From Nematostella vectensis (lineage: Eukaryota), in NCBI RefSeq assembly GCF_932526225.1, contig NC_064047.1, positions 1,817,027-1,881,026 on the forward strand: a DNA stretch of 64,000 nt, given 5' to 3'. Positions 2,036 to 63,600 of the stretch are shown piece by piece. The notes under the pieces are model-generated. The model saw only the letters and a list, made by a program, of their open reading frames with translations, was not told the DNA's origin and did no database searches. The first letter of the stretch is position 1; every line of letters starts with the position of its first letter. The translations under genes and the position numbers were made by a program.

Positions 2036-3953
2036 TCACAAATTCGAAGAGAATTATCAAATAACTGGATTCTATACGAATGACCTGTGAGCTCCCTACA
2101 AGGACTAAAAACTAAACAGAACGTCAGGATAGGCGGAGGAAAAGAAGCCTTAGCGATACGGGATCAAAGGCTGAACTGGTTGAGTGCCCGCTCGAGCTTT
2201 ATTCAGTGTTCTACAGCTGTAGGTACCTCTAGCTCGCCTTGCGGGACTACGACCCCAATGATAACTCTACATCGGAAGCCTCTCCTCCAAACGATAAATC
2301 ACGGCATTTGACTTTGTTTATAACTTAGGCGGCTCATCGCATTAATGCTAATAATATCTAACTTTTTTGACAATCATTTACAGCATGCCATAATATCTTA
2401 GGCAACGACTCGCAATGGGTCGCAATGCTGAACTTTTTACTTTGTCTTATCAACAATGCTATTTATTTCACTGATCATTATGGCTTATAATCTTGATTTA
2501 ATATTTATATTAACTTTCTTAACATCGCCGCCACTGTATTTGTGGCCTCTTGGCTCATAGAGCTGTTGATTCTGTTGCAGAGAGCTGGGGTCCCCCTTTT
2601 CTTTGTCACCAATAATCCTGATGATGTCCGCCTGCAGATGTACTTATTGGAGTTCATACAACAGTTGATACCTGGCCCAAGCTGAACATATCATACAGAA
2701 TGTGATGCCTGTTTGATGACGTCATAAAAAGCTAGTACCTCAACCTGATTACGTAATATAGAAGATGATACAGAACCGAGTCAAGCTGATAACGTCTTAC
2801 AGATGATACCTCTCCAATGATGTCATAAGCAAGCTATTGTCTGGTCAGTGACGCCATAAAACAAATGGTACCTGGTTTTTAACGTAGTGCAACATACTGT
2901 ACAATGTTACATCGTCAGTGACGTTATACAACAGCTGATACCTTGTGTATTTTGTCATGAGCCAACACTACCTGGTCCAACAGATGACACCATGTAATTT
3001 TTTGTTGAAAGCTGTTTTACAGTATGTAATAGATAAATTTAAAATTCAAAGAAATCTCATCGTCCAGCAAGAGAAAAATGCAAGCAGCTTTTTTTTCTCT
3101 TGGCCAGATATTCAAAAGTTTCTTGATTTCTTAAATCCAAATGAGCGACTAAGAAGAATTTTTGGTTGTTGCACTGGAGTGTACTGGACAGATTGTTGTA
3201 GAAAATAAGATTTGCAAAGGAATATTTTTAAAAAGACTGCGTTCGGACATTTAGGCCTTAATGCCTTTTGTATTAGGGACCGTAAAGTTGTCAATCATGA
3301 AATTGAAAAAGAAGTTTAATGATCAAGAAGCAACTAATAATCGATACCAAATCCTGTCAATTGTACTACCGATCAGAAAATATTGAACAAATGTTTCTTG
3401 TTTTAGGCCTTTTCTTCAAAATGTTACCATATTTTATATGTTCTGCCTACATGTATAGTACAACAAAGAGCCTATCTTGGAAACATTGTGGATGATCACA
3501 ACTAAATCAAGTCACTCAACAAGTGTTAACGTCGACTTTATTAGGAGTTGTGAGTTTATTCGCTTGTGTTTATCAAAATTTAACAAATGAAGGTTGCACA
3601 ACTACTATAACTTGATAAATTTCAACATTGAATTAGTATCAGGATAATATATTATAACAATAATTATAATAATAGTCTATTGTCCTCTATAATTATATTA
3701 GTGTCCATTTATGATATCGATATGACACAGTTAACGTGTGGGAATTCGAGGGAACCACTTTGAATTCATACTGCCGGTCAAATCCACAGCGTGAACATAT
3801 ATTCTGTAATTGATCTTGTACTATGAAGAGTTATTTATTCACTTATGAGAGCGGGAGCAGTCATACTGCTGGTCTATTCCAAGACATAAGTCACCGAATG
3901 AGTAATGCTTGGTGATTCTCCGGCTTTCCTTCTCACGGGCGTATAGTATTACA

Positions 3954-4250
3954 TTATTCATTCACTTCTGTGAGAAACTGACTTTCAATACTAGAGGGAA
4001 TCACCTCGAAAAACAAGTCATACTGCTGGTCTATTCCAAGATACGAGTCACTCATTAAGTACACCGTTAGGATTTTCCTCCCTTCCTCCTCGGGCGTGTA
4101 GAAGGATAGTGTAGCGGTGGTTGTCCCCTGGACAGGCCCAAGTCTCTTCAAAGCCATCAGCTCGCCCGTGTCAGTGTCTCCAAGCACCAGCCACCATCCT
4201 TCAGTCTGCACCTTGGGGAAGCACGGCGCGTGGACCTTGGCATCGGCTCC
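3954..4250 (-). CDS. ASCC3: ASCC3 terminal coding exon (GADAKVHAPCFPKVQTEGWWLVLGDTDTGELMALKRLGPVQGTTTATLSFYTPEEEGRKILTVYLMSDSYLGIDQQYDLFFEVIPSSIESQFLTEVNE*)
   Basis: Acceptor cattacag|. The stop codon TAA is at 3954-3956 (minus). An AATAAA on the minus strand at about 3835-3840 is a candidate polyadenylation signal. Confidence 0.85.
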   Translation of the reverse strand, partial: GADAKVHAPCFPKVQTEGWWLVLGDTDTGELMALKRLGPVQGTTTATLSFYTPEEEGRKILTVYLMSDSYLGIDQQYDLFFEVIPSSIESQFLTEVNE

Positions 4251-7899: not shown

Positions 7900-8340
7900 C
7901 AGGCGAAGGAAGGGAGATCCACTTGTACCCCCCCCCCCCCCCCCCAGTATCCAGGCACCCCGATATCTCCACCCATACCCCAAAAGATATCACCGTATGC
8001 TTAACTCCCGAGTATCGGGACAGACCGACAATTCCGGCTCCGCCCAAACCGAAAGCCAGATCCACTTATTCGAAATCCGTGCCCAAATGTGAAAGTGGGG
8101 TGTTTACCTGGACAATAAAAAGATAGCTAGACGCCTACTTCTCCAATATCGGGACATACCGACAATAACAGGTAAACATAAATAGCCCCCAACTCCAAAT
8201 ACCCCTATGTTAAAGTTGGGTTTCTATCTCAACCACAAAAAGATAGACAGACGTATGCCCATCTCCCCAGTAGTGATACACCGATAATTCCAGATCCACA
8301 AAAACCTAAAGACACGCCACCCACTTAATCGAACTCCATA
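7900..8340. repeat. About 135-bp tandem repeat, 3 copies (…gatatcaccg…ccgacaattccggctccgcc…); a fourth partial copy overlaps the 3' end of ASCC3 exon 28
   Basis: Direct reading. Confidence 0.55.
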
Positions 8341-10619: not shown

Positions 10620-11115
10620 CCTACTTCCTCTTCCTGCATGTCACGTCACGTGATAGTAACCTCCTTTTTTGGGCGGTCACGTCACACAGTACTTACCTCC
10701 TCTCCTCCATTTCCGCCAGGTGATGTATACCCTCTCTCCACCATTTGACGTCACGTGATGATTACCTTTTCTTCCGGTAAGTGATGTCACGTGATTTTTA
10801 CCTTCTCCCTCTGAAGGTGACGTCACGTGATGCTTACCTCTCCTTCCGGCATGAGACGTCACGTGATGCTTACCTCCTCCCTCTGAAGGTGACGCCACGT
10901 GATGCTTACCTCCTCTTCAGGCATGTGATTCTAAACTCTTCTTCAGGCATGAGACGTCACGTGATGCTTATCTTCACTTTCTTAATGTGACGTTACATGA
11001 TGCTCACCTCCTTTTCCGGTAAGTGGCGTCACGTGATTCCTACCTCTTCTTCCAGTATGCGGTGTCACGTGATTTTGACCTTCACCCTCTGCATGTGACG
11101 TCGCGTGATGCTCAC
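10620..11115. repeat. About 60-bp minisatellite (about 8 copies) whose unit is the ASCC3 exon-25 donor junction (minus strand GAGGAG|GTAAGCATCACGTGACGTC)
   Basis: Every unit carries an AG|GTAAGC consensus donor plus a CACGTG E-box and a TGACGTCA CRE-like palindrome. The array abuts the real donor at 11115/11116. Confidence 0.8.
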
Positions 11116-11379
11116 CTCCTCTTCAGGCATGTGCAGCCATTGCTTGGGGTCATCCTGGGCGGCCAGGAAGGCGATCAAGTCCAGGGCTGTTAGTCTGGTC
11201 TGTCTTCTGGACGAGACGAAGACGAGGGTGGGCTTGGTCGGAGAGTGAATCCGGATCGCCTCGAAAGTTGGCTTGTTCATAGTAGCCATACGAGGGCAGT
11301 AATGCTTGCCGGGAAATCCTGTGATGTGAACCTCAAGAGGAACAGGGCGAACTGAAGGTCGGAAGTTGAACATACCAGC
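11116..11379 (-). CDS. ASCC3: ASCC3 exon 25 ([88 protein letters not shown])
   Basis: The [16 protein letters not shown] motif is conserved. Acceptor tccccaag| and donor GAG|GTGAGC. Confidence 0.9.
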
Positions 11380-12419: not shown

Positions 12420-12746
12420 GTCGACCACAAAGATAACTAGTATGAGATCTGCCAGCTCTGACTGACGCTCAGCCCAACAAACCAGTTGCATACTAGTTTT
12501 ACAGGTTAAAGAATCTACCTCTTTAATAATAACCAGATTGACTTGTTTGACATAGCTAAGCGTCTGCCAGCTCTGACTGATCCCAGCCCGACAAGCCAGT
12601 TGCATACTAGTTTTACATGTTTAAATATCTACTTCGTCAATAGTGAGCAGATTGAATTGTTTGACATAGCTACGCGTCTGCCAGCTCTGACTGATCCCAG
12701 CCCGACAAACAAATTGCATACTAGTTTTACAGTTTTAAGTATCTAC
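12420..12746. repeat. 120-bp tandem pseudo-copies (about 3 copies) of the 3' end of ASCC3 exon 23 plus its donor (…SWQTRSYVKQVNLLIIDE|GTAGAT)
   Basis: The minus-strand copies read SWQTLSYVKQFNLLTIDE|GTAGAT and ...IIKE|GTAGAT. Confidence 0.8.
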
Positions 12747-12900
12747 CTCGTCAATAATAAGCAGATTGACTTGTTTGACGTAGCTACGCGTCTGCCAGCT
12801 TCGACTGATGCCGTCCCACTTCTCCGGTGTCGTCACGATGAGGTCAGCCTGGCTAATGGAACGCGAGTCTGGTGTGACGTCACCCGTCAGTTCTATCACC
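12747..12900 (-). CDS. ASCC3: ASCC3 exon 23 ([52 protein letters not shown])
   Basis: Acceptor ccgttgccag| and donor GAG|GTAGAT. The downstream intron carries 2-3 pseudo-copies of this exon's 3' end plus donor. Confidence 0.85.
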
Positions 12901-13153: not shown

Positions 13154-13439
13154 CTGTAAAAGGACAAAACAATTCATCTGACCTTTGATTCTTTAAAATA
13201 AAACCTCCCACATGATATGCTACCCAAAGGCCGGTTCCTAGATGGCAGGTTAGCCTTAACACACGGATAAATCGGCTATCCCGACATTTAATTGTACAAA
13301 AAGCGCATCCATCCCTGACTTAGCGTTAGCATGCTTTCTAGGAATCCGGCCCAGTACTTCTAGTGCCTCGGTCATTACTCGGCATAGAAGTAATTTGAGA
13401 TGTGCCTCGTTATTATGAGGGCATGACTGGGTACTGGGT

Positions 13440-14095
13440 TCGGGAGTGACTCGATACTATTCGGGTGTGACTCGATACTATTCGGGAGTGACTCGATACA
13501 ATTCGGGAGTGACTCGGTACAATTCGGGAGTGACTCGGTACAATTCGGGAGTGACTTGGTACTATTTGGGAGTGACACGGTACAATTCGGGAGTGACTCG
13601 ATACAATTCGGGAGTGACTCGTTACAATTCGGGAGTGTATCGGTACGATTTGGGAGTGACTAGGTACAATTCGGGAGTGACTCGGTACAATCCGGTAGTG
13701 ACTCGTTACAATTTGGGAAGTGACTAGGTACTATTCGGGAGTGACTCGGTACAATTCGGGAGTGACTCGATACAATTCGGCAGTGAATAAGTACAATTCT
13801 GGAGTGACTAGACACAATTCGGCAGTGAATAAGTACAATTCAGGAGTGACTCGTTACAATTCGGGGAGTGACTCGTTACAATTCGGGGAGTGACTAGGTA
13901 CAATTCGGGGAGTGACTCGGTACTATTCGAGAGTAACTCGAGTTCGTATTATTTGGGAGTGACACGGTATTATTCCGGAGTGACTTGGTACTATTCGGCA
14001 GTGACCCGGTACTATTCGGCAGTGACTCGGTACTATTCGGCAGTGACTCGGTACTATTCGGCAGTGACCCGGTACCATTCGTGTGCATTTAACTG
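13440..14095. repeat. 21-30-bp minisatellite (GGGAGTGACTCGGTACAATTC)n, more than 20 copies, starting just 3' of the exon-21 donor
   Basis: Direct reading. The unit does not contain the junction. Confidence 0.8.
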
Positions 14096-14399: not shown

Positions 14400-15154
14400 T
14401 TGCGTGATTTCAAGTTGTGTCGCGTGATGTCACGGCCGTCTTACGTGGCCATACGTATCTGTACGAGGATTGGGTGCGTGGCTAGCTTTGTTGCGTGACG
14501 CAATGGCGTTGTATTGCGTTATTCCAAGCAATGTTGCGTGACGTCACAATGCTGTATTACGCAACCATATGTTGCGTGACGCCATGGTGCTGTATTGCGT
14601 GATTTCAATTAATGTTGCGTGACGTCACGGTATAGTATGGAATCACGGGTGGCCCTCTCAACCCTGAATTTCACTTGTTGGACGTATGTGAGCTTACTAG
14701 AAGCTCGTGTTCCTCAGTTCCAAGATGGGTCATTATTAATACATTAGGATTTTAAATGTGAAGCGCTTAGAACATGGTTGATATAAGCGCTACATAAATG
14801 TCAATTGAATTAATTAATTTAATTATTACGCGACCATACAGTGCCTGTATCTGTACGGGGTTATGTTGCGTGACGCCATGGTGCTGTATTGCGATGATTT
14901 TTAGTAGTGTTGCGTGACGTCACGGTGCAGTATTGCGTGACAATACAGTACCTGCATCTGCACGGGGTAGTGTGCGTGACGCCACGGTGTAATGTTTGAA
15001 TTCAAGTAGTGTTGTGTGACGTCACGGTGTAGTATTACGTGACAATACAGTACCTGTATCTGCACGGGGTTGTGTTGCGTGACCTAATGTTGCAGCATCG
15101 CGTGATTTCAAGTAGCATTGCGTGACATCACGGTGTAGTATTACGTGACCATAC
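14400..15154. repeat. 60/120-bp minisatellite (about 6 copies) built from the ASCC3 exon-20 donor junction (minus strand AACCCCGTGCAGATACAG|GTACTGTATTGTCACG, i.e. …NPVQTQ|GT)
   Basis: Each unit repeats the last 18 nt of the exon plus a GTA donor and a TGACGTCA motif. The array abuts the real donor at 15154/15155. Confidence 0.8.
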
Positions 15155-16387: not shown

Positions 16388-17560
16388 CTGAGATCATAAT
16401 GAAAGGGTGTATAATGTGAGATACGAACACATAATCAAGGGGTGTATAATGTGAGATACGAACACATAATCAAGGGGTGTATAATGTGAGATACGAACAC
16501 ATAATCAAGGGGTGTATAATGTGAGATACGAACACATAATCAAGGGGTGTATAATGTGAGATACGAACACATAATCAAGGGGTGTATAGTGTGAGATACG
16601 AACACATAATCAAGGGGTGTATAATGTGAGATACGAACACATAATCAAGGGGTGTATAGTGTGAGATACGAACACATAATCAAGGGGTGTATAGTGTGAG
16701 ATACGAACACATAATCAAGGGGTGTATGATGTGAGATACGAACACATAATCAAGGGGTGTATAATGTGAGATACGAACACATAATCAAGGGGTGTATAAT
16801 GTGAGATACGAACACATAATCAAGGGGTGTATAGTGTGAGATACGAACACATAATCAAGGGGTGTATAATGTGAGATACGAACACATAATCAAGGGGTGT
16901 ATAGTGTGAGATACGAACACATACTCAAGGAGTGTATAGTGTGAGATACGAACACATAATCAAGGGGTGTATGATGTGAGATACGAACACATAATCAAGG
17001 GGTGTATAATGTGAGATACGAACACATAATCAAGGGGTGTATAATGTGAGACACGAACACATAATCAAGGGGTGTATAGTGTGAGATACGAACACATAAT
17101 CAAGGGGTGTATAATGTGAGATACGAACACATAATCAAGGGGTGTATAGTGTGAGATACGAACACATAATCAAGGGGTGTATAATGTGAGATACGAACAC
17201 ATAATCAAGGGGTGTATAGTGTGAGATACGAACACATAATCAAGGGGTGTATAGTGTGAGATACGAACACATAATCAAGGGGTGTATGATGTGAGATACG
17301 AACACATAATCAAGGGGTGTATAATGTGAGACACGAACACATAATCAAGGGGTGTATAATGTGAGATACGAACACATAATCAAGGGGTGTATGATGTGAG
17401 ATACGAACACATAATCAAGGGGTGTATAATGTGAGATACGAACCCAAAATTAAAGGTTGTATAATGTGAGATACGAACACATAATCAAGGGGTGTAGAGT
17501 GTGAGATACGAACACATGATCAGGGATGTATGGTGTGAGATAGGAACTTAAGATCAGGGG
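16388..17560. repeat. 40-bp minisatellite (GGGGTGTATAATGTGAGATACGAACACATAATCAA), about 29 copies, filling about 85% of the intron between exons 19 and 18
   Basis: Direct reading. The unit resembles the last 20 nt of that intron (cattatgatctcag). Confidence 0.85.
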
Positions 17561-19484: not shown

Positions 19485-19571
19485 CTTAATTTGCTCAAAT
19501 TCGCCAGCGTGTGACAACATCTCCAGGATTTCTGGCATTGCAAGGTCTGGACGGAACCTCTCGTTGAATTC
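19485..19571 (-). CDS. ASCC3: ASCC3 exon 16 (EFNERFRPDLAMPEILEMLSHAGEFEQIK)
   Basis: Acceptor tgtgtag| and donor AAG|GTAGGG. Confidence 0.6.
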
Positions 19572-19625
19572 CTACACAGGAAATCACACATTAAAGGTGT
19601 GAACAAATAAAAGCTCAGCACAACC

Positions 19626-20040
19626 ACCACAAGTGGCGCGATAGCTCAGTGATACGGGCTTCGCTTCTCAAGCAAGAGGGCGGGGGTCCGAACCCTGGTC
19701 AGATCAACTGATCAAGGATTTTTTTCAGAGGTGTAAATAGACTTGGCTCTCTACACTGGTGACTGTGAATCCCTCATCTTCTTGGATAAGGACGTTAAGC
19801 CGGAGGTCCCGTCACTCATCGCACATCATTAACCTGTATTGGGAGACGTAAAAGAACCGCTGGGGACGCTGGCTCGTGGTACCATCTTCAGTGACAATGC
19901 TTACAAACTAACTCACTCATGATTGTAAACTGCGTGGAGCAGTCCGTATCTACACACTGACGAGTGTGAGCATTTGATCATTTCGTTTGTTAAAGTGCGC
20001 TATACAAATGACAAACATTTTAGCGAATGCTAAGAAACCT
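19626..20040 (+). mobile_element. tRNA-derived SINE (tRNA-like head with A/B boxes, a body, and a conserved GTGCGCTATACAAATG tail motif)
   Basis: GGCGCGATAGCTCAGTGATA...GGGTCCGAACCC resembles a tRNA A-box and B-box, but the acceptor stem does not pair, so this is not a functional tRNA. Tail motifs of the same type recur at 7225-7260 and 14745-14810. Confidence 0.45.
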
Positions 20041-20339
20041 AGATCAAACTTAAGGCTATATTTTTTTTATGACTCCCTCATTATCAAACAAATCTGTCAT
20101 CTTTTGTACAGTATGGTTTTAATGCTGTACAAAAAGTCAAAACAGCGACCGAAACCGATGTAAGCTATTCGTACCTTTACTCGAACGATTCAACACTGAG
20201 ATTTTGTTTGTTCTCGCCAGAACACGCGCATGCGCATACGTTATTAAGCACTGTCCGATAACATTATACTTGATGCAACACGGATGCGCGGTAGGTAATT
20301 CCTTATTTCCTAAAAAAATATCATACTTAATAAAGGAGT

Positions 20340-20882
20340 CGCCGTGTTAGTGAAGTTGGCTGGTCCTTACCTCGATAGTATCGAACTCGATGTAGAAGTG
20401 ACTGGTCGTGTTATCAAGGTCGGCTGGTCCTTACCTCAATAGTATCGAACTCGATGTAGAAGTTTCTGGTCGTGTTATCGAGGTCGGCTGATCCTTACCT
20501 CAATAGTATTGAACTCGATGTAGAAGTTACTAGTTGTGTTATCAAGGTCGGCTGGTCCTAACCTTAATAGTATCGAACTCGATGTAGAAATTTCTGTTTG
20601 TGTTATCAAGGTCGGCTGGTCCTTACCTCAATAGTATCGAACTCGATGTAGAAGTGACTGGTCGTGTTATCGAGGTCGGCTGGTCCTTACCTCAATAGTA
20701 TCGAACTCGATGTAGAAGTAACTAGTCGTGCTATCGAGGTCAGCTGGTCCTTACCTCAATAGTATCGAACTCGATGTAGAAGTTACTAGTTGTGTTATCG
20801 AGGTCGGCTGGTTTTTACCTCATTGGTATCGTACTCGATATAGAAGTGACTGCTCGTGGTCTCAAGGTCGCCTGGTCCTTAC
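20340..20882. repeat. 60-bp minisatellite (about 9 copies) built from the ASCC3 exon-15 donor junction (minus strand …TTCTACATCGAGTTCGATACTATTGAG|GTAAGGACCAGC)
   Basis: Units read FYIEFDTIE|GTAAGG, against the real exon end FYIKYDTIE|GTAAGG. Confidence 0.85.
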
Positions 20883-21047
20883 CTCTATAGTATCGTACTT
20901 GATATAGAAGTGACTGGCCGTTCTACCGAGGTCGGTGGCTGACAAGTAGCCTTGCTCCTCTGCAAATCTGATCATACGGGCCTTGTCCAGTTTACGAGCA
21001 GTCGACACTATCAGCTGCCGTCTGTAATTCTCGAGTGTCGGGTCATC
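20883..21047 (-). CDS. ASCC3: ASCC3 exon 15 (DDPTLENYRRQLIVSTARKLDKARMIRFAEEQGYLSATDLGRTASHFYIKYDTIE)
   Basis: Acceptor ttttcaag| and donor GAG|GTAAGG. The real donor is the first in a ladder of about 10 tandem donor copies. Confidence 0.75.
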
Positions 21048-21818: not shown

Positions 21819-21938
21819 CTCTTTATCCTTGTGAGGAATTCCATAGACTAGAGGGTTCTTGATCATTCGTATGTACAGGTAAGAGTAGCTCAGCCATTCC
21901 ACCGCTTCGTTTACATTAGTAACAGTACCAAGACAAAT
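21819..21938 (-). CDS. ASCC3: ASCC3 exon 14 ([40 protein letters not shown])
   Basis: Start of the winged-helix/Sec63 region. Acceptor cttgtag| and a weak donor GAG|GTTCGT. Phase 0 on both sides. Confidence 0.6.
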
Positions 21939-22400
21939 CTACAAGACAATGTATTACTTGAATGCGGCCTAGAAAGTCAAGTCTGAAAAAAAGGGGTGAT
22001 CATGGGATGTATAATAATCGTGTAGGGTCGAATAGTTATTCCACCGCTTCGTTTACATTAGTAACAGTACCAAGACAAATCTACAAGACAATGTATTAGT
22101 TGAATGCGGCCTAGAAAGTCAAGTCTAAAAAAAAAGGTTGATCATGGGATGTATACTAATCGTGTAGGGTCGAATAGTTATTCCACCGCTTCGTTTACAT
22201 TAGTAACAGTACCAAGACAAATCTACAAGACAATGTATTAGTTGAATGCGGCCTAGAAAGTCAAGTCTGAAAAAGGGGTGATCATGGGATGTATACTAAT
22301 CGTGTAGGGTCGAATAGTTATTCCACCGCTTCGTTTACATCAGTAACAGTACCAAGACAAATCTACAAGACAATGTATTATTAGTTTGGTGCGGCCCAAA
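21939..22400. repeat. 120-bp tandem repeat (about 4 copies) built from the ASCC3 exon-14 acceptor junction (minus strand ttgtcttgtag|ATTTGTCTTGGTACTGTTACTAATGTAAACGAAGCGGTGGAA)
   Basis: Each unit contains the acceptor plus the first about 45 nt of the exon. Confidence 0.85.
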
Positions 22401-26279: not shown

Positions 26280-27071
26280 ATGTTGCCAACCCCCATCTCG
26301 CCTTCCGCTTCCTCTTTCCTGCTTCATTCCTCCACTTATCCCTCAGCTATACAGGTCCAGGTACTTGACGGCAGGTTGACGCCCAAAGCCAGACTGCCCC
26401 CCTCTTCCACCCTTCCACTCCCTTTGTCTCCCTCCAACCCCTTACACCCATCCATAGCAGACCAGTGCCTTGATGATGTCAGTGTATAAGACGACACTTC
26501 AACCCAGAGAGACGTTCAAACCCTCCCCCCTCCCTCACATCCCTTCCAAGCGTTTCACCTCTCCTGCCTAGAGGAAGGTTAAGAGTCTAAAGAGTCGATA
26601 CCTTTGATGACAGCATGTAAAAAGAGAGAGATGCTTCAAGCCAGAGACACTAACCTATCCCCCCACCCACCCATCCCTCGCCAATGTTTTATCTCCCAAC
26701 TGTACTTTGTGCGTCAGCGAAGAGGCCCCAACAAGACCCCAACTTCTCCATCTCTTATTTCCTTTTTTTTGTACTTAAGATCAGTACCTTAATAATGACG
26801 GTGAAGTGGGTAAGACGGGGCTGACGCTTCAAGCCTGATAGACGGCCACAGCTCCCCCCGTACCATCCCATCAGCATTTCACCTTCCTCATCTTTCCAAA
26901 CATAAAAGTCTGTGAACTGGGAGTCTGTGAACTGGGAGATCGACGCCCTAACATGACATTCCGTCCCTGCCCCCATTTTTCTCCCTTCCTCTCTCTTCCA
27001 ACAAAAACCTTCCTCCCTCTCTTCCTGGCTCCACTATCCCCACCCCTCCCTCACATGTATAGGATCAGTAC
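26280..27071. repeat. Degenerate, irregular (145-270 bp) tandem copies of the ASCC3 exon-12 donor junction (minus strand ..CGTCATTATCAAG|GTACTGATC), each preceded by a CT/proline-codon-rich stretch
   Basis: Copies at about 26470 (CATCAAG|GCACTG), 26615 (CATCAAAG|GTATCG), 26805 (CATTATTAAG|GTACTGATC) and the real donor at 27071/72. Confidence 0.5.
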
Positions 27072-27642: not shown

Positions 27643-27777
27643 CTGCTTGAGGGCGCTACCGTAGTCTGGGGCCTGCTCTGCCCTGAAGAGCATGGAGTCC
27701 CCCTGATTGGAAGCCATCTCTCTTAACGTCATGGCCGTCCGCACGGTGGCATTTCTAGCATGAACAAACACCATGAC
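27643..27777 (-). CDS. ASCC3: ASCC3 exon 11 (VMVFVHARNATVRTAMTLREMASNQGDSMLFRAEQAPDYGSALKQ)
   Basis: The VMVFVHARNATVRTA motif is conserved. Acceptor tctcttcag| and donor CAG|GTACTG. Confidence 0.85.
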
Positions 27778-27960
27778 CTGAAGAGACAAATAAATAATTA
27801 TAGAACGAACAAACACCATGACCTGAAGAGACAAATAATTCTAGCATGAACAAACACCCTGACCTGAAGAGACAAATAAATAATTATAGAACGAACAAAC
27901 ACCATGACCTGAAGAGACAAATAAATAATTATAGAACGAACAAACACAAACCTGAAAAGA
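27778..27960. repeat. 45-bp tandem repeat (about 4 copies) duplicating the ASCC3 exon-11 acceptor (minus strand ctataattatttatttgtctcttcag|GTCATGGTGTTTGTTC)
   Basis: Direct reading. Each unit has a full polypyrimidine-AG acceptor plus the first 16 exon nt. Confidence 0.85.
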
Positions 27961-28125
27961 TAAATGACTACGTAGATACCATTTTCGTAATCATCACTAC
28001 AATAATTATCATTATGATCACCGTCATCAAAATCGTTTTCTTGTATTCAGATCAGTATGTTTCCGGTATTTTCAGAACAATCACCGTCATGATGATCATC
28101 ATCGACGTGATCATGAACATTACCG

Positions 28126-28994: not shown

Positions 28995-29243
28995 CTGGTA
29001 GCCCTTCTCCACGTTTTCTGTGACCTTCTCATAGCAGATCTTATCCATCTCGTGCGCTTGCTGGAACGGGTTCAGCCCTTTCACCCCGATGAACGTCTGT
29101 CCGAGGGGGACTGGGCGAAAACGTGAGTCGAAGGCGAAAAGACCTTTGTACGGGTCCACCCTTAGGAAGTGTGCGACGTCCAGATAGTTAGGGAGAGTAG
29201 CAGACAGTCCGACAATGCGAATCATGGACTGCGAGGATAACAC
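28995..29243 (-). CDS. ASCC3: ASCC3 exon 10 (VLSSQSMIRIVGLSATLPNYLDVAHFLRVDPYKGLFAFDSRFRPVPLGQTFIGVKGLNPFQQAHEMDKICYEKVTENVEKGYQ)
   Basis: Helicase motif III (SAT) is present. Acceptor attgtag| and donor CAG|GTATAG. Confidence 0.85.
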
Positions 29244-30400
29244 CTACAATACATATTAAGATAAATTCCAACAGATGGTTAGGAAGAGTGGCAGATAGGC
29301 CGACAATGCAAATCCTAGACTGTGAGGACAAAACCTACAATACATATTAAGATAAATTCCAACAGACGGTTAGGGAGAGTGGCAGATAGGCCGACAATGC
29401 AAATCCTAGACTGTGAGGACAAAACCTACAATACATATTAAGATAAATTCCAACAGATGGTTAGGGAGAGTGGCAGATAGGCCGACAATGCAAATCCTAG
29501 ACTGTGAGGACAAAACCTACAATACATATTAAGATAAATTCCAACAGATGGTTAGGGAGAGTGGCAGATAGGCCGACAATGCAAATCCTAGACTGTGAGG
29601 ACAAAACCTACAATACATATTAAGATAAATTCCAACAGATGGTTAGGGAGAGTGGCAGATAGGCCGACAATGCAAATCCTAGACTGTGAGGACAAAACCT
29701 ACAATACATATTAAGATAAATTCCAACAGATGGTTAGGGAGAGTGGCAGATAGGCCGACAATGCAAATCCTAGACTGTGAGGACAAAACCTACAATACAT
29801 ATTAAGATAAATTCCAACAGATGGTTAGGGACAGTGGCAGATAGGCCGACAATGCAAATCCTAGACTGTGAGGACAAAACCTACAATACATATTAAGATA
29901 AATTCCAACAGATGGTTAGGGAGAGTGGCAGATAGGCCGACAATGCAAATCCTAGACTGTGAGGACAAAACCTACAATACATATTAAGATAAATTCCAAC
30001 AGATGGTTAGGGAGAGTGGCAGATAGGCCGACAATGCAAATCCTAGACTGTGAGGACAAAACCTACAATACATATTAAGATAAATTCCAACAGATGGTTA
30101 GGGAGAGTGGCAGATAGGCCGACAATGCAAATCCTAGACTGTGAGGACAAAACCTACAATACATATTAAGATAAATTCCAACAGATGGTTAGGGAGAGTG
30201 GCAGATAGGCCGACAATGCAAATCCTAGACTGTGAGGACAAAACCTACAATACATATTAAGATAAATTCCAACAGATGGTTAGGGACAGTGGCAGATAGG
30301 CCGACAATGCAAATCCTAGACTGTGAGGACAAAACCTACAATACATATTAAGATAAATTCCAACAGATGGTTAGGGAGAGTGGCAGATGGCCGACAAGGC
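29244..30400. repeat. 90-bp minisatellite (about 13 copies) built from the ASCC3 exon-10 acceptor junction (minus strand tatgtattgtag|GTTTTGTCCTCACAGTCTAGGATTTGCATTGTCGGCCTATCTGCCACTCTCCCTAACCATCTG)
   Basis: Unit = the last about 27 nt of the intron including the acceptor, plus about 63 nt homologous to the exon start (real: GTGTTATCCTCGCAGTCCATGATTCGCATTGTCGGACTGTCTGCTACTCTCCCTAACTATCTG). Confidence 0.85.
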
Positions 30401-30599
30401 AAATATTAAACATCCTCTGTCTTAGCCATTTTATCATCCTAGCAAAGCACCACTTTTATCGGCTAAATAAGGGGAATTAATGTCATATTTTAGATTGAAT
30501 TTGTTAAATAAAGAATCAAACTTTGTTTTTAGATGGCCTCTAGATGTCTTACTAACACATGAGAGATTAGCGAACAGCAAAACAAATAATGCAACGTCC

Positions 30600-30790
30600 T
30601 TGCTTAAAGCCTCAGGGATACTCGGGTTTTGCTCGGAAATGCCGATGATTTCCTGTTGTAACGTCCTCGCTATAAAAAGCCTCAGGGCTTTTCGGGATTT
30701 ACTCGGAAATGCCGATGATTACCTGTCGTAACGTCCTCGCTAAAAAGTCTCGGGACTAATCAGGGTTTACTCGGAAATGGCGATGATTAC
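30600..30790. repeat. 60-bp tandem copies (about 3 copies) of the ASCC3 exon-9 donor junction (minus strand GCGAGGACATTACGACAG|GTAATCATCGCCATTTCCGAG)
   Basis: Direct reading. One copy has its donor mutated to GAAATC. Confidence 0.8.
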
Positions 30791-30955
30791 CTGTCGTAAT
30801 GTCCTCGCCACAAGGCACTCAATGACGGAGCCACGGTCATCATGCAGCAAATGAACCTCGTCAATGATGAGTAGCTTGACAAGCTGAGCCAGCGCTACAT
30901 CTCCAGTGGACTTACGTGTGACAACATCCCACTTTTCCGGGGTAGTGACAAGCAT
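30791..30955 (-). CDS. ASCC3: ASCC3 exon 9, containing the DEVH box ([55 protein letters not shown])
   Basis: The DEVH motif and a TTPEKWD motif are present. Acceptor tgtcgcag| and donor CAG|GTAATC. Confidence 0.85.
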
Positions 30956-59047: not shown

Positions 59048-61339
59048 GTAAGAGAAGTGGATTATAGGGAGCTTGAAGCTCGAATCTGGGTTCCACTCTT
59101 TGTGCCTGGGGCTATATTGTGTATGTTTGTGGTGATTTTTATTTCGTACATCCAGTACATAGAATGAAGTGATGGCAGAAAGTGTCGAAAATGTGGGGAT
59201 GAACATGGTGGGTGGGTGCTAGTGAAAAAAAGTCAGGATTTCCATGATAGCGACAGTGGATGGGGAAAACTGAAACGTTTGTAATAATTAGGGTAGTGAG
59301 AATATAAAGAATATGCTTCGTATGTACGTGACGATCTAACTTATCTAGAAACATCTCTGAAATTGTTTATAAACCTCTAGATCAAGAATTAATTAAATGC
59401 GTGTTTTGTTTTGTAATAGCACTAAAAAGAAAAATAAACAATTTTGTGAAGATCATCAATTTCAAGCCATAGTGTGATGGACAAGAACTTAAAAGCAACA
59501 CATCATCTTTTGTTTCAAAGCAGACGTAAAAATGACTATTTCTCTACTTCGGCTTATTTTAGACCTTTTGATACGTTTGGTAAGCTGGGGTCTGATAGAC
59601 ACACCTTTAGAAATGTTCCCGAAGAGAAGACAGAAATGTGATATGCCATTTGCCTTTAAAAGACCTATCATTCGTTTTGAAACATGAGGTGGGGAGGAGG
59701 GCTGATTAACACTCTTTAATAAACAAAAACAGGTATCAAGCAGATGCTTGTCAATGTACACTTACTCATTCCCTGTTTGGGTTGAGAGCGTAAAATTCAA
59801 TTAAAACCAGGAAGCTTAGCCCAAGTGTGCCCCCTTATGGTAATGTCAGCAGTCAAGATAGGGGCTACTAGGTTACGCTCGGACAGACAAAACAAAAAGA
59901 ATGGAGCAATTAATAAGTTTTTAACTCTTTAACCGATAAAAGGTCAGAGGTGAGCTCGAGCTTGTAGAGATATTTATTTTATTTTGAGGCATCGAGGGAG
60001 TAGTACGGATGATGGTCTACACTGTGTGGAAACCCCAAAAACAGTGAAGATAAAGAAAAGAAGAAAAAAAGCCGGGAATAGTTAAATGCAAACCGTTGAA
60101 AAATATCAATTGGAATAAAGCCGCTCAAAAAAAAATCTAGCTTAGAATATAACTCGATTCACAGACCCATTTGCCCCTTAAGCTTTTTTTTTTGGCAATA
60201 TAGTAATTCCTAGAAATGCCATATTTGCCATATTCGCGTGACCATTGAAGGGAGTTGGATATAGCAGCAACTGGATCATAAACAATCCAAGTGTCACAGC
60301 CAGGACAGAGCAGAAAAACTTGCACGAAACACGATTAAGCATTCTATTAGTGTCTTACATTCAGTTTTGCATAAATTCATTCTGATATTGCATAAATGAT
60401 CCACGATATGAAGTCCAACGGCTTGCTTAGTAACAGCCTCTGGCATAGCCTCTGAGAGAACAATCTTGTCTAGTTCTTCGTTACGTCATTTCCTGTTTAC
60501 GATTGCGTAGGCGTGCCCAGTTCTCCTCCGGTCTGCCCCAAGGATGATGGTCGACGAAACGGCTTGAAGACATTTGGAAGTCATCAAGCCTCTGTTAGCG
60601 GTTGAATATCCTAAACGGCACTAAAATCCTTCCTCTGCTCAATACCTTTTCTTTCGCTGTGTGTATCATTTCTTATTTGTTCAAACTACAAGCGCATCTC
60701 AATGTTCCTTTTTTAAAGTTTATTGGATTACGTCATCGTGTGGTAAAAAATTTGCCTTTCAGATATTCGAAACCTGGCTTTTAATGTTTTAAAAACATGT
60801 TTGATGAGTCCAAGAAGAAATGGTTAAATGTTAACTCAAAAGAAGAGCTACGTCTTTTTTCGTGACGTGCTGACCCTATTAGTAAGCATTGTTGTATGTA
60901 TATGCGCCATTTGGAAAGAGTTAGTGATGCCGGCATATTTACAGCCTTTGAAAGGCCCCGTTAGGGGCTTAACCAGACAAGCTCATCTATCATATAGCGA
61001 TTTGTACGTCTCATTACATGAATTACGCTCATTTAGTTTAAACCTTTCGGCGTCGGCCTTTTGGTCAGTTTAAACTACCGAAGACGGTTATTACAGCAAT
61101 TAGTAACCCAAAAAGCCGCAGATTGGAGCAGATAGTTCCACATGGATGTATTTTGTTTCCTTTTTTGAGAGTGATTACACTCTAATAAATAGCATATTTC
61201 TAGTTACAGGGGCGTTTAAGGGTCAATGGGTAAGAGGTAGTGAAAGGCAGTGTGGGGGGACTTCATGTAAGATGGTTTGACCATTTAGTCGTTCGGTATT
61301 TGAGCAAATGTGTGATAATTCTGTTAATGCTTGAGGGTG

Positions 61340-62132
61340 CATTTTTGCCGCCATTTGTTCTGACACCTCTGTTACCATGTTTGCAAGCGCATGTTTCCCG
61401 CCATTTGTTCTGACACCGCTGTTTTCTGTTTGCAGGCGCATGTTACCTGCCATTTGTTCTTGTACCGCTGTTTTCATGTTTGCAGGCTCATGTTTCCCGC
61501 TATTTGTTATGAAACCGCTGTTTTCATGTTTGCAAGCGCATGTTTCCCACCTTTGTTCTGACACCGCTGTTTTCATGTTTGCAGGCGCATGTTTTCCTCC
61601 ATATGTTTGATACCGCTGTTATCATGTTTGCAGGCGCATGTTTCCCGCCATTTGTTCTGATACCACTGTTTTCATTTTTGCAAGCGCAAGTTTCCCAAAA
61701 TTTGTTCTTATACCGCTGTTATCATGTTTGCAGGCGCATGTTTGCTGCCATTTGTTCTGACACCGCTGTTTTCAAGTTTGCAGGCGCATGTTTCCCGCCT
61801 TTGTTCTGACACCACTGTTATCATGTTTGCAGGCGCATGTTTCCCGCTATTTGTTCTGACACCGCTGTTTTCATGTTTGCAGGCGCATGTTTTCCACCAT
61901 TTGTTATGACACCGCTGTTTTCATGTTTGCAAGCGCATGTTTCCCGCTATTTGTTCTGACACCGCTGTTTTCATGTTTGCAGGCGCATGTTTTCCACCAT
62001 TTGTTCTGACACCACTGTTATCATGTTTGCAGGCGCATGTTTCCCGCTATTTGTTCTGACACCGCTGTTTTCATGTTTGCAGGCGCATGTTTTCCACCAT
62101 TTGTTATGACACCGCTGTTATCATGTTTGCAG
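61340..62132. repeat. 50-bp minisatellite (about 15 copies) built from the TBX20 exon-3 acceptor junction (unit GCGCATGTTTCCCGCCATTTGTTCTGACACCGCTGTTTTCATGTTTGCAG)
   Basis: Each unit ends in the acceptor tcatgtttgcag| and restarts with the first 19 nt of exon 3 (GCGCATGTTTCCCGCCATT). The last unit is the real acceptor and exon. Confidence 0.9.
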
Positions 62133-62249
62133 GCGCATGTTTCCCGCCATTCGCGTGAAGGTGTCTGGTTTGGATCCCCATGCGCACTACATACTAGTGA
62201 TGGATGTAATACCGCTGGACGGCAAACGCTACAGATACGCATATCATAG
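62133..62249 (+). CDS. TBX20: TBX20 exon 3 ([39 protein letters not shown]-)
   Basis: RMFP...VSGLDP...[12 protein letters not shown] is the TBX20 signature. Acceptor tgtttgcag| and donor AG|GTAAGT. Confidence 0.9.
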
Positions 62250-62869: not shown

Positions 62870-63600
62870 GCTGCTGCTGCTGCTGCTGATAATGGTGGTG
62901 GTGGTGATGGTGGTGGTGGTGGTGGTGGTGGTGGTGGTGGTGGTGGTGGTGGTGGTGGTGGTGGTGGTGGTGGTGGTGGTGGTGGTGGTGGTGGTGGTGG
63001 TGGCGATGGCGATGGCGATGGCGATGGCGATGGCGATGGCGATGGCGATGGCGATGGCGATGGCGATGGCGATGGCGATGGCGATGGCGATGGCGATGGC
63101 GATGGCGATGGCGATGGCGATGGCGATGGCGATGGCGATGGCGATGGCGATGGCGATGGCGATGGCGATGGCGATGGCGATGGCGATGGCGATGGCGATG
63201 GCGATGGCGATGGCGATGGCGATGGCGATGGCGATGGCGATGGCGATGGCGATGGCGATGGCGATGGCGATGGCGATGGCGATGGCGATGGCGATGGCGA
63301 TGGCGATGGCGATGGCGATGGCGATGGCGATGGCGATGGCGATGGCGATGGCGATGGCGATGGCGGTGGCGGTGGCGATGGCGATGGCGATGGCGATGGC
63401 GATGGCGATGGCGATGGCGATGGCGATGGCGATGGCGATGGCGATGGCGATGGCGATGGCGATGGCGATGGCGATGGCGATGGCGATGGCGATGGCGATG
63501 GCGATGGCGATGGCGATGGCGATGGTGATTGTGATGGTGATGGTGATGGTGATGGTGATGGTGGTCATGTTGTTGATGATGATGATAATGATGATGATGA
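62870..63600. repeat. Compound microsatellite (GCT)n-(GGT)n-(GGCGAT)n-(GGTGAT)n-(GAT)n, about 730 bp, in TBX20 intron 4
   Basis: Direct reading. All four long six-frame ORFs here are artefacts. Confidence 0.95.

Follow-up and report, generated by a model that had tools for sequence, protein, structure and literature searches.

A junction-spanning minisatellite repeats the exon 15 splice donor of ASCC3 in Nematostella vectensis

Introduction

When one splice donor stands nine times in a row behind a coding exon, the questions arise which copy marks the true exon boundary, what the other copies would do to the transcript, and how such a row of signals came about. A locus of this kind is present in Nematostella vectensis within the window analyzed here, i.e., a stretch of 64,000 nucleotides (NC_064047.1, positions 1,817,027 to 1,881,026) with a GC content of 41.9%. 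It had been pointed out by an earlier sequence-only reading, which saw in it a nine-copy ladder of the exon 15 donor of ASCC3. In the following, the gene model, the anatomy of the repeat, the strength of its donors, and the consequences of their use are described, followed by a comparison with similar systems. All coordinates refer to the window, and a slash marks the boundary between exon and intron.

ASCC3 gene model and the boundary of exon 15

The sequence-only reading had named ASCC3 as the host gene and exon 15 as the exon concerned, and both assignments agreed with a 34-exon model, a splice and frame search, and an alignment to human ASCC3. As guides for tblastn, we used human ASCC3 sequences, which served as scaffolds only, and combined them with a frame-aware search for GT/AG boundaries; a frame open throughout and, for exons 13–19, a comparison with PDB entry 8ALZ chain B served as controls of the resulting model. 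It revealed 34 exons on the minus strand, with the start codon ATG at 38921 and the stop codon TAA at 3954–3956, and a translation of 2174 residues without internal stop. For this translation, a look-up of exact sequence identity was negative. The best identities of the model in the protein database were 60% for a conserved region and 45% for the N-terminus, to unnamed or distant proteins. Translated exons 13–19 matched human ASCC3 (8ALZ chain B) with an E value of 4.5e-221, the main stretch comprising query residues 1–418.

Exon 15, numbered from the exon with the ATG, is located at 20883–21047 (minus strand), has a length of 165 nt with phase 0 at both ends, and encodes DDPTLENYRRQL...LGRTASHFYIKYDTIE, as supported by the splice and frame search, the open model, and the alignment to 8ALZ chain B. 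It is followed by intron 15 (19572–20882, minus strand, 1311 nt), of which the repeat array makes up the first c. 540 nt, and by exon 16 (19485–19571, minus strand; EFNERFRPDLAMPEILEMLSHAGEFEQIK) with the acceptor tgtag/GAATTC. At the junction of both exons, the deduced sequence tashfyikydtie-efnerf stands without gaps opposite human TASHYYIKYNTIE-TFNELF. Judged by the deduced protein, the first GT (20882) is the only donor predicted to give a product collinear with human ASCC3. The first site had also been taken as the productive donor in the sequence-only reading, and the open frame of 2174 codons together with the gapless alignment of exons 13–19 to 8ALZ chain B speaks for this choice. By gene model and homology, the terminal unit of the array is the genuine boundary, and the other units are intronic. 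Since the exon part of the unit encodes the conserved LGRTASHFYIKYDTIE segment, which aligns without gaps to the human protein, the exon copy appears to be ancestral and the intronic copies derived.

Anatomy of the array and its 64-bp unit

TRF revealed a tandem head-to-tail array on the minus strand at 20343–20935 with a period of 64, 9.3 copies, 87% matches, no indels, and a score of 841, and a second repeat search resulted in nine copies whose starts lie exactly 64 apart. A head-to-tail ladder of nine copies, as proposed before, was thus confirmed at its place, but the unit had been given as 60 bp and as a multiple of 3; the period of 64 obtained by both approaches equals 3 × 21 + 1 and is therefore not a multiple of 3. 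Each unit consists of the last c. 53 nt of exon 15 followed by the first c. 11 nt of intron 15 (GTAAGGACCAG). Unit 0 of this 64-bp minisatellite is the real junction itself, as indicated by TRF, the repeat search, an alignment of the units, and BLAST of exon 15 against the window. In the latter analysis, exon 15 with its flanks found 8 copies, which cover the 3' end of the exon and the adjoining flank. A donor-spanning core of 45 nt (TTCTACATCGAGTTCGATACTATTGAG/GTAAGGACCAGCCGACCT) occurred 7 times at up to 3 mismatches, with 0 occurrences expected from 100 shuffles. Within the window, this core was confined to the intron 15 array of ASCC3, and a dispersed element was rejected on these grounds. 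A search of the window against Rfam gave no match.

In the unit alignment, 8 of 64 positions separate unit 0, the exon copy, from the consensus built on the intronic units, and the unit of decoy donor 4 is nearest to the exon copy (56/64). The most diverged is unit 1, which adjoins the exon and has 48–53 of 64 positions in common with the other units, whereas the interior units 2–8 share 53–62 of 64 positions (83–97%). A possible decayed tenth unit was tentatively placed by alignment at 20296–20359 (minus strand), with its donor destroyed (GGAAATAAGG) and exon-like states kept (AAGTATGATA, cf. AAGTACGATA); its local alignment score of 22 is marginal, being equal to the maximum of 300 shuffles. 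The edge units, i.e., copy 1 and this possible copy 9, are thus the most diverged, in contrast to the alike interior units. Aged edges enclosing homogenised inner units are what minisatellite turnover usually leaves behind, and the same pattern of concerted evolution, with interior units alike and edge units excluded, is typical of the junction-spanning minisatellites known as mirages, though not strictly defining for them.

A ladder of this kind might also have been mis-assembled or over-expanded, as amphioxus mirage regions were mis-assembled in draft genomes (BflGb6, PMC3087553). Here, however, the units differ from one another at 2–16 of 64 positions and keep a constant register without indels, which is unlike collapse or stutter, and similar arrays with differing units are found across the gene. 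We therefore regard an assembly artefact as highly improbable, although the copy number could still vary between haplotypes.

Differences between units were less frequent in the 37 columns around the donor (11/296) than in the 5' 27 columns (24/216; Fisher p = 0.001), a split of columns that was chosen post hoc and compares units that are non-independent by common ancestry. Lower variation near the donor core could hint at constraint; because of the post hoc partition and the relatedness of the units, we do not rely on it, and selection on the donor core was set aside despite the p value.

Donor sites of the ladder

Nine donor-like GTs stand 64 nt apart on the minus strand, with their G at 20882, 20818, 20754, 20690, 20626, 20562, 20498, 20434, and 20370. 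The authentic 5' splice site, GAG/GTAAGG at 20877–20885 (minus strand, as are all sites of the ladder; G of the GT at 20882), was assigned by the splice and frame search and by collinearity with human ASCC3. Decoy donor 1 (20813–20821, GAG/GTAAAA) lost the G at +5 and +6 and belongs to the most diverged unit, and decoy 2 (20749–20757, GAG/GTAAGG) is the same as the authentic site over 11 nt. They are followed by decoy 3 (20685–20693, GAG/GTAAGG), decoy 4 (20621–20629, GAG/GTAAGG), whose unit is the one closest to the exon copy, and decoy 5 (20557–20565, AAG/GTTAGG), which is weakened at +3. Decoys 6 (20493–20501), 7 (20429–20437), and 8 (20365–20373) again read GAG/GTAAGG, the last of them being the last intact copy. 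A GTAAGG donor, which had been ascribed to each copy, is therefore present at seven of the nine sites, the exceptions being copy 1 (GTAAAA) and copy 5 (GTTAGG). Similarly, the peptide motif FYI[EK][FY]DTIE proposed for the copies was nearly right: it covers FYIKYDTIE of the authentic unit and FYIEFDTIE of five copies, but not FYIEYDTNE, FYIEFDTIK, and FYIEFNTIE.

On a scoring matrix derived from the remaining 32 donors of ASCC3, the authentic site reached 12.0–12.1, as did six decoys, all of them ranking above these 32 donors (median 8.7), while the two altered decoys scored 10.1 and 9.4. Six of the eight decoys match the authentic site over positions −3 to +8 (11 nt), and a further one was counted as matching over −3 to +6, which is the reiterated-donor feature of the F7 type. 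Since six decoys equal the authentic site in strength, the choice of the first donor cannot be a matter of site strength.

At each of the seven GAG/GTAAGG sites, 7 consecutive base pairs with the 5' end of U1 are possible. U1 bound within an intron can promote splicing upstream of it and prevent premature polyadenylation, and the strong donors of the ladder might in this way act as a landing pad for U1 snRNP that aids recognition of exon 15 or suppresses premature cleavage within the intron. However, no need for such a function is evident, as the authentic donor already is the best-scoring one of the gene, and other junction arrays copy acceptors or weak donors, so that a U1 role does not generalise. 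Recruitment of U1 as the reason for the array is thus very unlikely.

Recursive splice sites were rejected on the basis of the motif, taking as criterion a pyrimidine tract and a YAG set directly against the donor (YAG/GTAAGT). The junctions of the ladder read ...GATACTATTGAG/GTAAGG, in which the G at −3 results in GAG, a disfavoured acceptor, and no clear pyrimidine tract is seen.

Frame consequences of decoy use

Intron 15 starts with GTA AGG ACC AGG CGA CCT TGA, which translates to VRTRRP followed by a stop. Read-through from the authentic donor, for which a TAA after 8 codons had been claimed, thus reaches an in-frame TGA (20862–20864, minus strand) after 6 codons, concordant with an ORF end at 20862. 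Any mRNA spliced at a decoy carries this TGA as well: at all eight decoys, splicing adds a multiple of the unit (64k nt) including VRTRRP and the stop. For every decoy, the sequence-only reading was consequently right in that use of a downstream donor would bring in sequence with a stop and truncate the protein, and no productive alternative is possible among them.

Based on the collinearity with the human protein and on these premature stops, as well as by analogy with known arrays, we infer that the first donor is the one used in vivo. Some use of decoys is plausible by the same kind of analogy, because splicing of the human genes IFI6 and CBS employs, besides the authentic donor, also the two nearest pseudo-sites (PMC1557585). 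Decoys used at an appreciable and controllable rate could tune the level of ASCC3 via degraded transcripts. In addition to the IFI6 and CBS cases, the strength of six decoys, the premature stop resulting from all of them, and the lower variability of the donor-containing half of the unit would fit such regulated unproductive splicing. On the other hand, the nearest decoy, by analogy the likeliest to be used, is the degraded GTAAAA, and both the reported mirages and the F7 array are silent (PMC3087553, PMC3902484, PMC1557585). Moreover, about ten boundaries of the gene are affected alike, including acceptor sides and the stop codon, which is explained better by a mutational by-product. We therefore consider regulation by decoy use unlikely.

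RNA structure of the repeated unit

The unit is self-complementary, comprising ACCUCGAU, AUCGAG, and UAUUGAGGU, the latter of which pairs with a downstream ACCUCGAUA. Two units (20685–20812, as minus-strand RNA) are predicted to fold at −36 kcal/mol (z = −3.5). Such hairpins might hide the decoys and leave the authentic donor open, by which the first site would be chosen, and the complementarity of ACCUCGAUA and UAUUGAGGU, which lets each donor sit in a stem, as well as the z value of the two-unit fold would be in line with this. However, the predicted 9-mer opening energies amounted to 8–10.7 kcal/mol for the authentic donor and 4–11 kcal/mol for decoys 2–8, compared to a mean of 4.8 kcal/mol for the 33 donors of the gene, and revealed no consistent difference between authentic site and decoys. 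The authentic donor is even predicted to be among the least accessible of the 33, and all donors of the array, including the real one, would be unusually buried. Since the opening cost does not favour the authentic site, which appears as buried as its copies, hairpin masking of the decoys was rejected and is very hard to credit as the basis of first-site choice. Apart from that, the self-complementarity of the unit may favour slippage at the DNA level.

Other boundary-spanning duplications in ASCC3

Probes of 40 nt across each of the 66 splice junctions, with a match defined as at least 28/40, revealed copies in the own intron for 9 of the 66 junctions, and copies in any other intron of the gene were not found for any of the 66 at this threshold. 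The junctions with copies comprised, on the donor side, those of exons 9, 15, 20, 23, 25, and 28 and, on the acceptor side, those of exons 10 (91-bp unit), 11, and 14 (142-bp unit). BLAST of each exon with 15-nt flanks against the window was concordant with the probes and added exon 12 as well as a duplication across the stop codon. Altogether, about ten boundary-spanning duplications are present in one gene of 35 kb. Every exon-derived copy is made up of the end of an exon and its flank, keeps the orientation of the original, and lies on the side that is spliced out or untranslated, and the exon portion included per array never exceeds 63 nt. TRF arrays account for 7.9 kb of the 28.4 kb of intron in this gene (28%). 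Regarding their position, 7 of 21 arrays cross a junction compared to 9.2 ± 2.0 under random placement, so that there is no enrichment, and a targeting of junctions was rejected.

An acceptor-side counterpart of the exon 15 ladder, with copies more numerous and more alike, is located at exon 10 (acceptor at 29243), where 13.5 copies of a 91-bp unit share 98% identity (29181–30404, minus strand). Both the acceptor (tgtattgtag/) and the first 63 nt of exon 10 (VLSSQSRICIVGLSATLPNHL) are part of this unit, and 12 extra acceptors stand upstream of the real one. The intron concerned, intron 9 (29244–30790, 1547 nt), is flanked on its inner sides by two arrays, a donor array of exon 9 at its 5' end (68 bp × 3.2, 30593–30808) and the 91-bp acceptor array at its 3' end, and consists to c. 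88% of tandem copies of its own two junctions. Exon 14, which precedes exon 15, harbors at its acceptor (21938) a 142-bp unit repeated 3.4 times at 96% identity (21896–22380, minus strand), by which the acceptor is duplicated together with the first 43 nt of the exon, with three extra intronic copies just upstream.

Further boundary-spanning duplications were located at 12448–12809, 14824–15154, 10746–11133, 27753–27965, 26776–26801, and 8249–8297. Further donors duplicated are those of exon 23 (114 bp × 3.2), exon 20 (102 bp × 3.2), exon 25 (36/72 bp), exon 12, and exon 28, and a further acceptor that of exon 11 (45 bp); several of the periods of these further duplications are multiples of 3. 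In the last coding exon, the part at 4016–4101 (FYTPEEEGRKILTVYLMSDSYLGIDQQYD) is copied at 3859–3946 (minus strand), c. 155 nt downstream and just past the TAA. The arrangement resembles a tandem duplication spanning the stop codon, the extra copy of which is located in the 3' UTR.

Arrays confined to introns were seen as well. A 35-bp unit is repeated 33 times at 95% identity at 16395–17547, occupies c. 85% of intron 18, and stops 7 nt short of the acceptor of exon 19, and a 21-bp unit × 30 (13439–14081) starts 26 nt past the donor of exon 21. The region upstream of the gene (39000–64000) is also dense in minisatellites and microsatellites, e.g., 44 bp × c. 38 at 49909–51585, 69 bp × 10.5 at 47672–48400, 50 bp × 16 at 61339–62151, and (TGGCGA)n at 63001–63561, and some repeat units there hold GTAAGG-like motifs.

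These findings are most simply read as tandem duplication occurring everywhere at a very high rate, while selection purges changes to the mature coding sequence. Where a duplication spans a donor, an acceptor, or the stop codon, it would survive because its extra copies are spliced out or lie past the stop.

Discussion

We regard the ladder, a junction-spanning minisatellite of the "mirage" type, as most likely a near-neutral by-product without dedicated function, of which the first donor is used and any products of decoys would be cleared by nonsense-mediated decay. As to its origin, a 64-bp segment comprising the last c. 53 nt of exon 15 and the first c. 11 nt of intron 15 would have been duplicated in tandem, and the array would have grown by slippage or unequal exchange, its interior units being homogenised as the edge units aged. 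Such growth could be tolerated with the protein unchanged, since all extra units lie downstream of the first donor and would leave with intron 15. The splicing machinery would take the most upstream of equivalent donors, be it through exon definition from the acceptor of exon 15 or through a 5'-to-3' polarity as in F7 IVS7. Errors at decoys would add 64k nt with a TGA after 6 codons, and the resulting transcripts would be targets of nonsense-mediated decay because this TGA is located far upstream of the last exon junction. The array may thus be seen as one instance of the very high minisatellite load of this gene, in which selection would spare copies outside the mature coding sequence. Findings that speak against a silent ladder include the strength of six decoys, which equal the authentic site over 11 nt and score higher than all other donors of the gene, and a predicted RNA structure by which the authentic site gains no advantage.

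A farther-reaching interpretation would be that junction-seeded minisatellites are a main route of intron growth and of new splice sites or introns in this genome, with the decoys possibly acting as a low-level dosage valve via nonsense-mediated decay. It is prompted by the c. ten boundary duplications within 35 kb and by the one intron made up to c. 88% of copies of its own junctions, and we consider it a doubtful extension of the mirage interpretation.

For a minisatellite-rich genome, the ladder is ordinary, and as a single locus it adds little: its class is described, and a minigene series has a precedent in F7 IVS7 (PMC1557585). Its recommendation in the sequence-only reading as a good test case for the choice of the first of many identical donors therefore overstated the novelty. 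What the locus offers is a natural ladder of strong donors, by which the rule that the first site wins can be tested in a non-mammal and under conditions where all sites bind U1 well, whereas the donors of F7 are weak. Together with the other boundary duplications of ASCC3, it illustrates how a minisatellite-rich genome lengthens its introns as selection keeps the coding sequence intact. In practical terms, donor ladders can mislead gene predictors and assemblers.

Comparison with known systems

Duplicated splice signals are also known from intron gain by tandem duplication across AGGT, as formulated in the Rogers model (Hellsten et al. 2011, PMC3265369). As in that process, the duplications in ASCC3 result in extra, potentially usable sites; in contrast to it, an existing intron was lengthened and no new intron arose.

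Among human junction-spanning minisatellites, the 37-bp VNTR in intron 7 of F7 is the closest to the question of donor choice. Its first monomer spans the exon-intron boundary, 5–9 monomers occur, and of the 5–9 identical donors only the most upstream one is used, though the others are functional (PMC1557585, Borensztajn et al. 2006). The choice of the first of these identical 5' splice sites was dissected with 50 minigene constructs and attributed to a 5'-to-3' polarity (PMC1557585). Both arrays have in common that the first unit spans the boundary and that an authentic donor is followed by identical pseudo-donors. They differ in that the F7 unit includes only 4 nt of exon compared to c. 53 nt in ASCC3, that the F7 donor is weak (UGG/gugggu) while that of ASCC3 is strong (GAG/GUAAGG), and that some pseudo-sites of F7 keep the frame open, whereas all decoys of ASCC3 lead to a stop. 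Moreover, donor usage in F7 is experimental, while that in ASCC3 is deduced. Further human examples given in PMC1557585 are IFI6 (6-16) intron 2, CBS intron 13, and LMNB2, in the last of which the authentic site alone is used. Turri et al. reportedly described in 1995 a unit of 12 nt for IFI6, which accordingly gives rise to in-frame isoforms, whereas the decoys of ASCC3 leave no productive product.

The mirages of amphioxus were reported first in Adh3 (2002, NAR 30:2871) and then in the globin genes BflGb6 and BflGb9, in PGBD5, and in TnC, with units of 10–160 bp in Adh3 and the globins, according to PMC3087553 and PMC3902484. The same sources mention somatic instability of the Adh3 mirage and normal splicing left undisturbed in reports on Adh3, the globins, and TnC. 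Globin mirages affect both types of boundary, are polymorphic in length, keep their AG/GT signals, and form clusters with a homogenised interior and diverged edges (PMC3087553). No genome-wide survey of mirages was found in the literature searched. Unlike Adh3 and the globins of amphioxus, for which splicing and length polymorphism were shown, the arrays of ASCC3 are known from one sequence, and unlike the published mirages, they affect about ten boundaries within a single gene, a density above that of any published single-gene example we found. Like the amphioxus mirages, the units of ASCC3 comprise part of an exon plus a splice signal in tandem, 5' and 3' boundaries are both affected, and the 64-bp unit falls within 10–160 bp, with a homogenised interior and excluded edges. 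The copies likewise keep their splice signals, and mirage copies are presumed to be silent. In all structural features examined, the ladder at exon 15 of ASCC3 is thus a junction-spanning ("mirage"-type) minisatellite of a kind already described.
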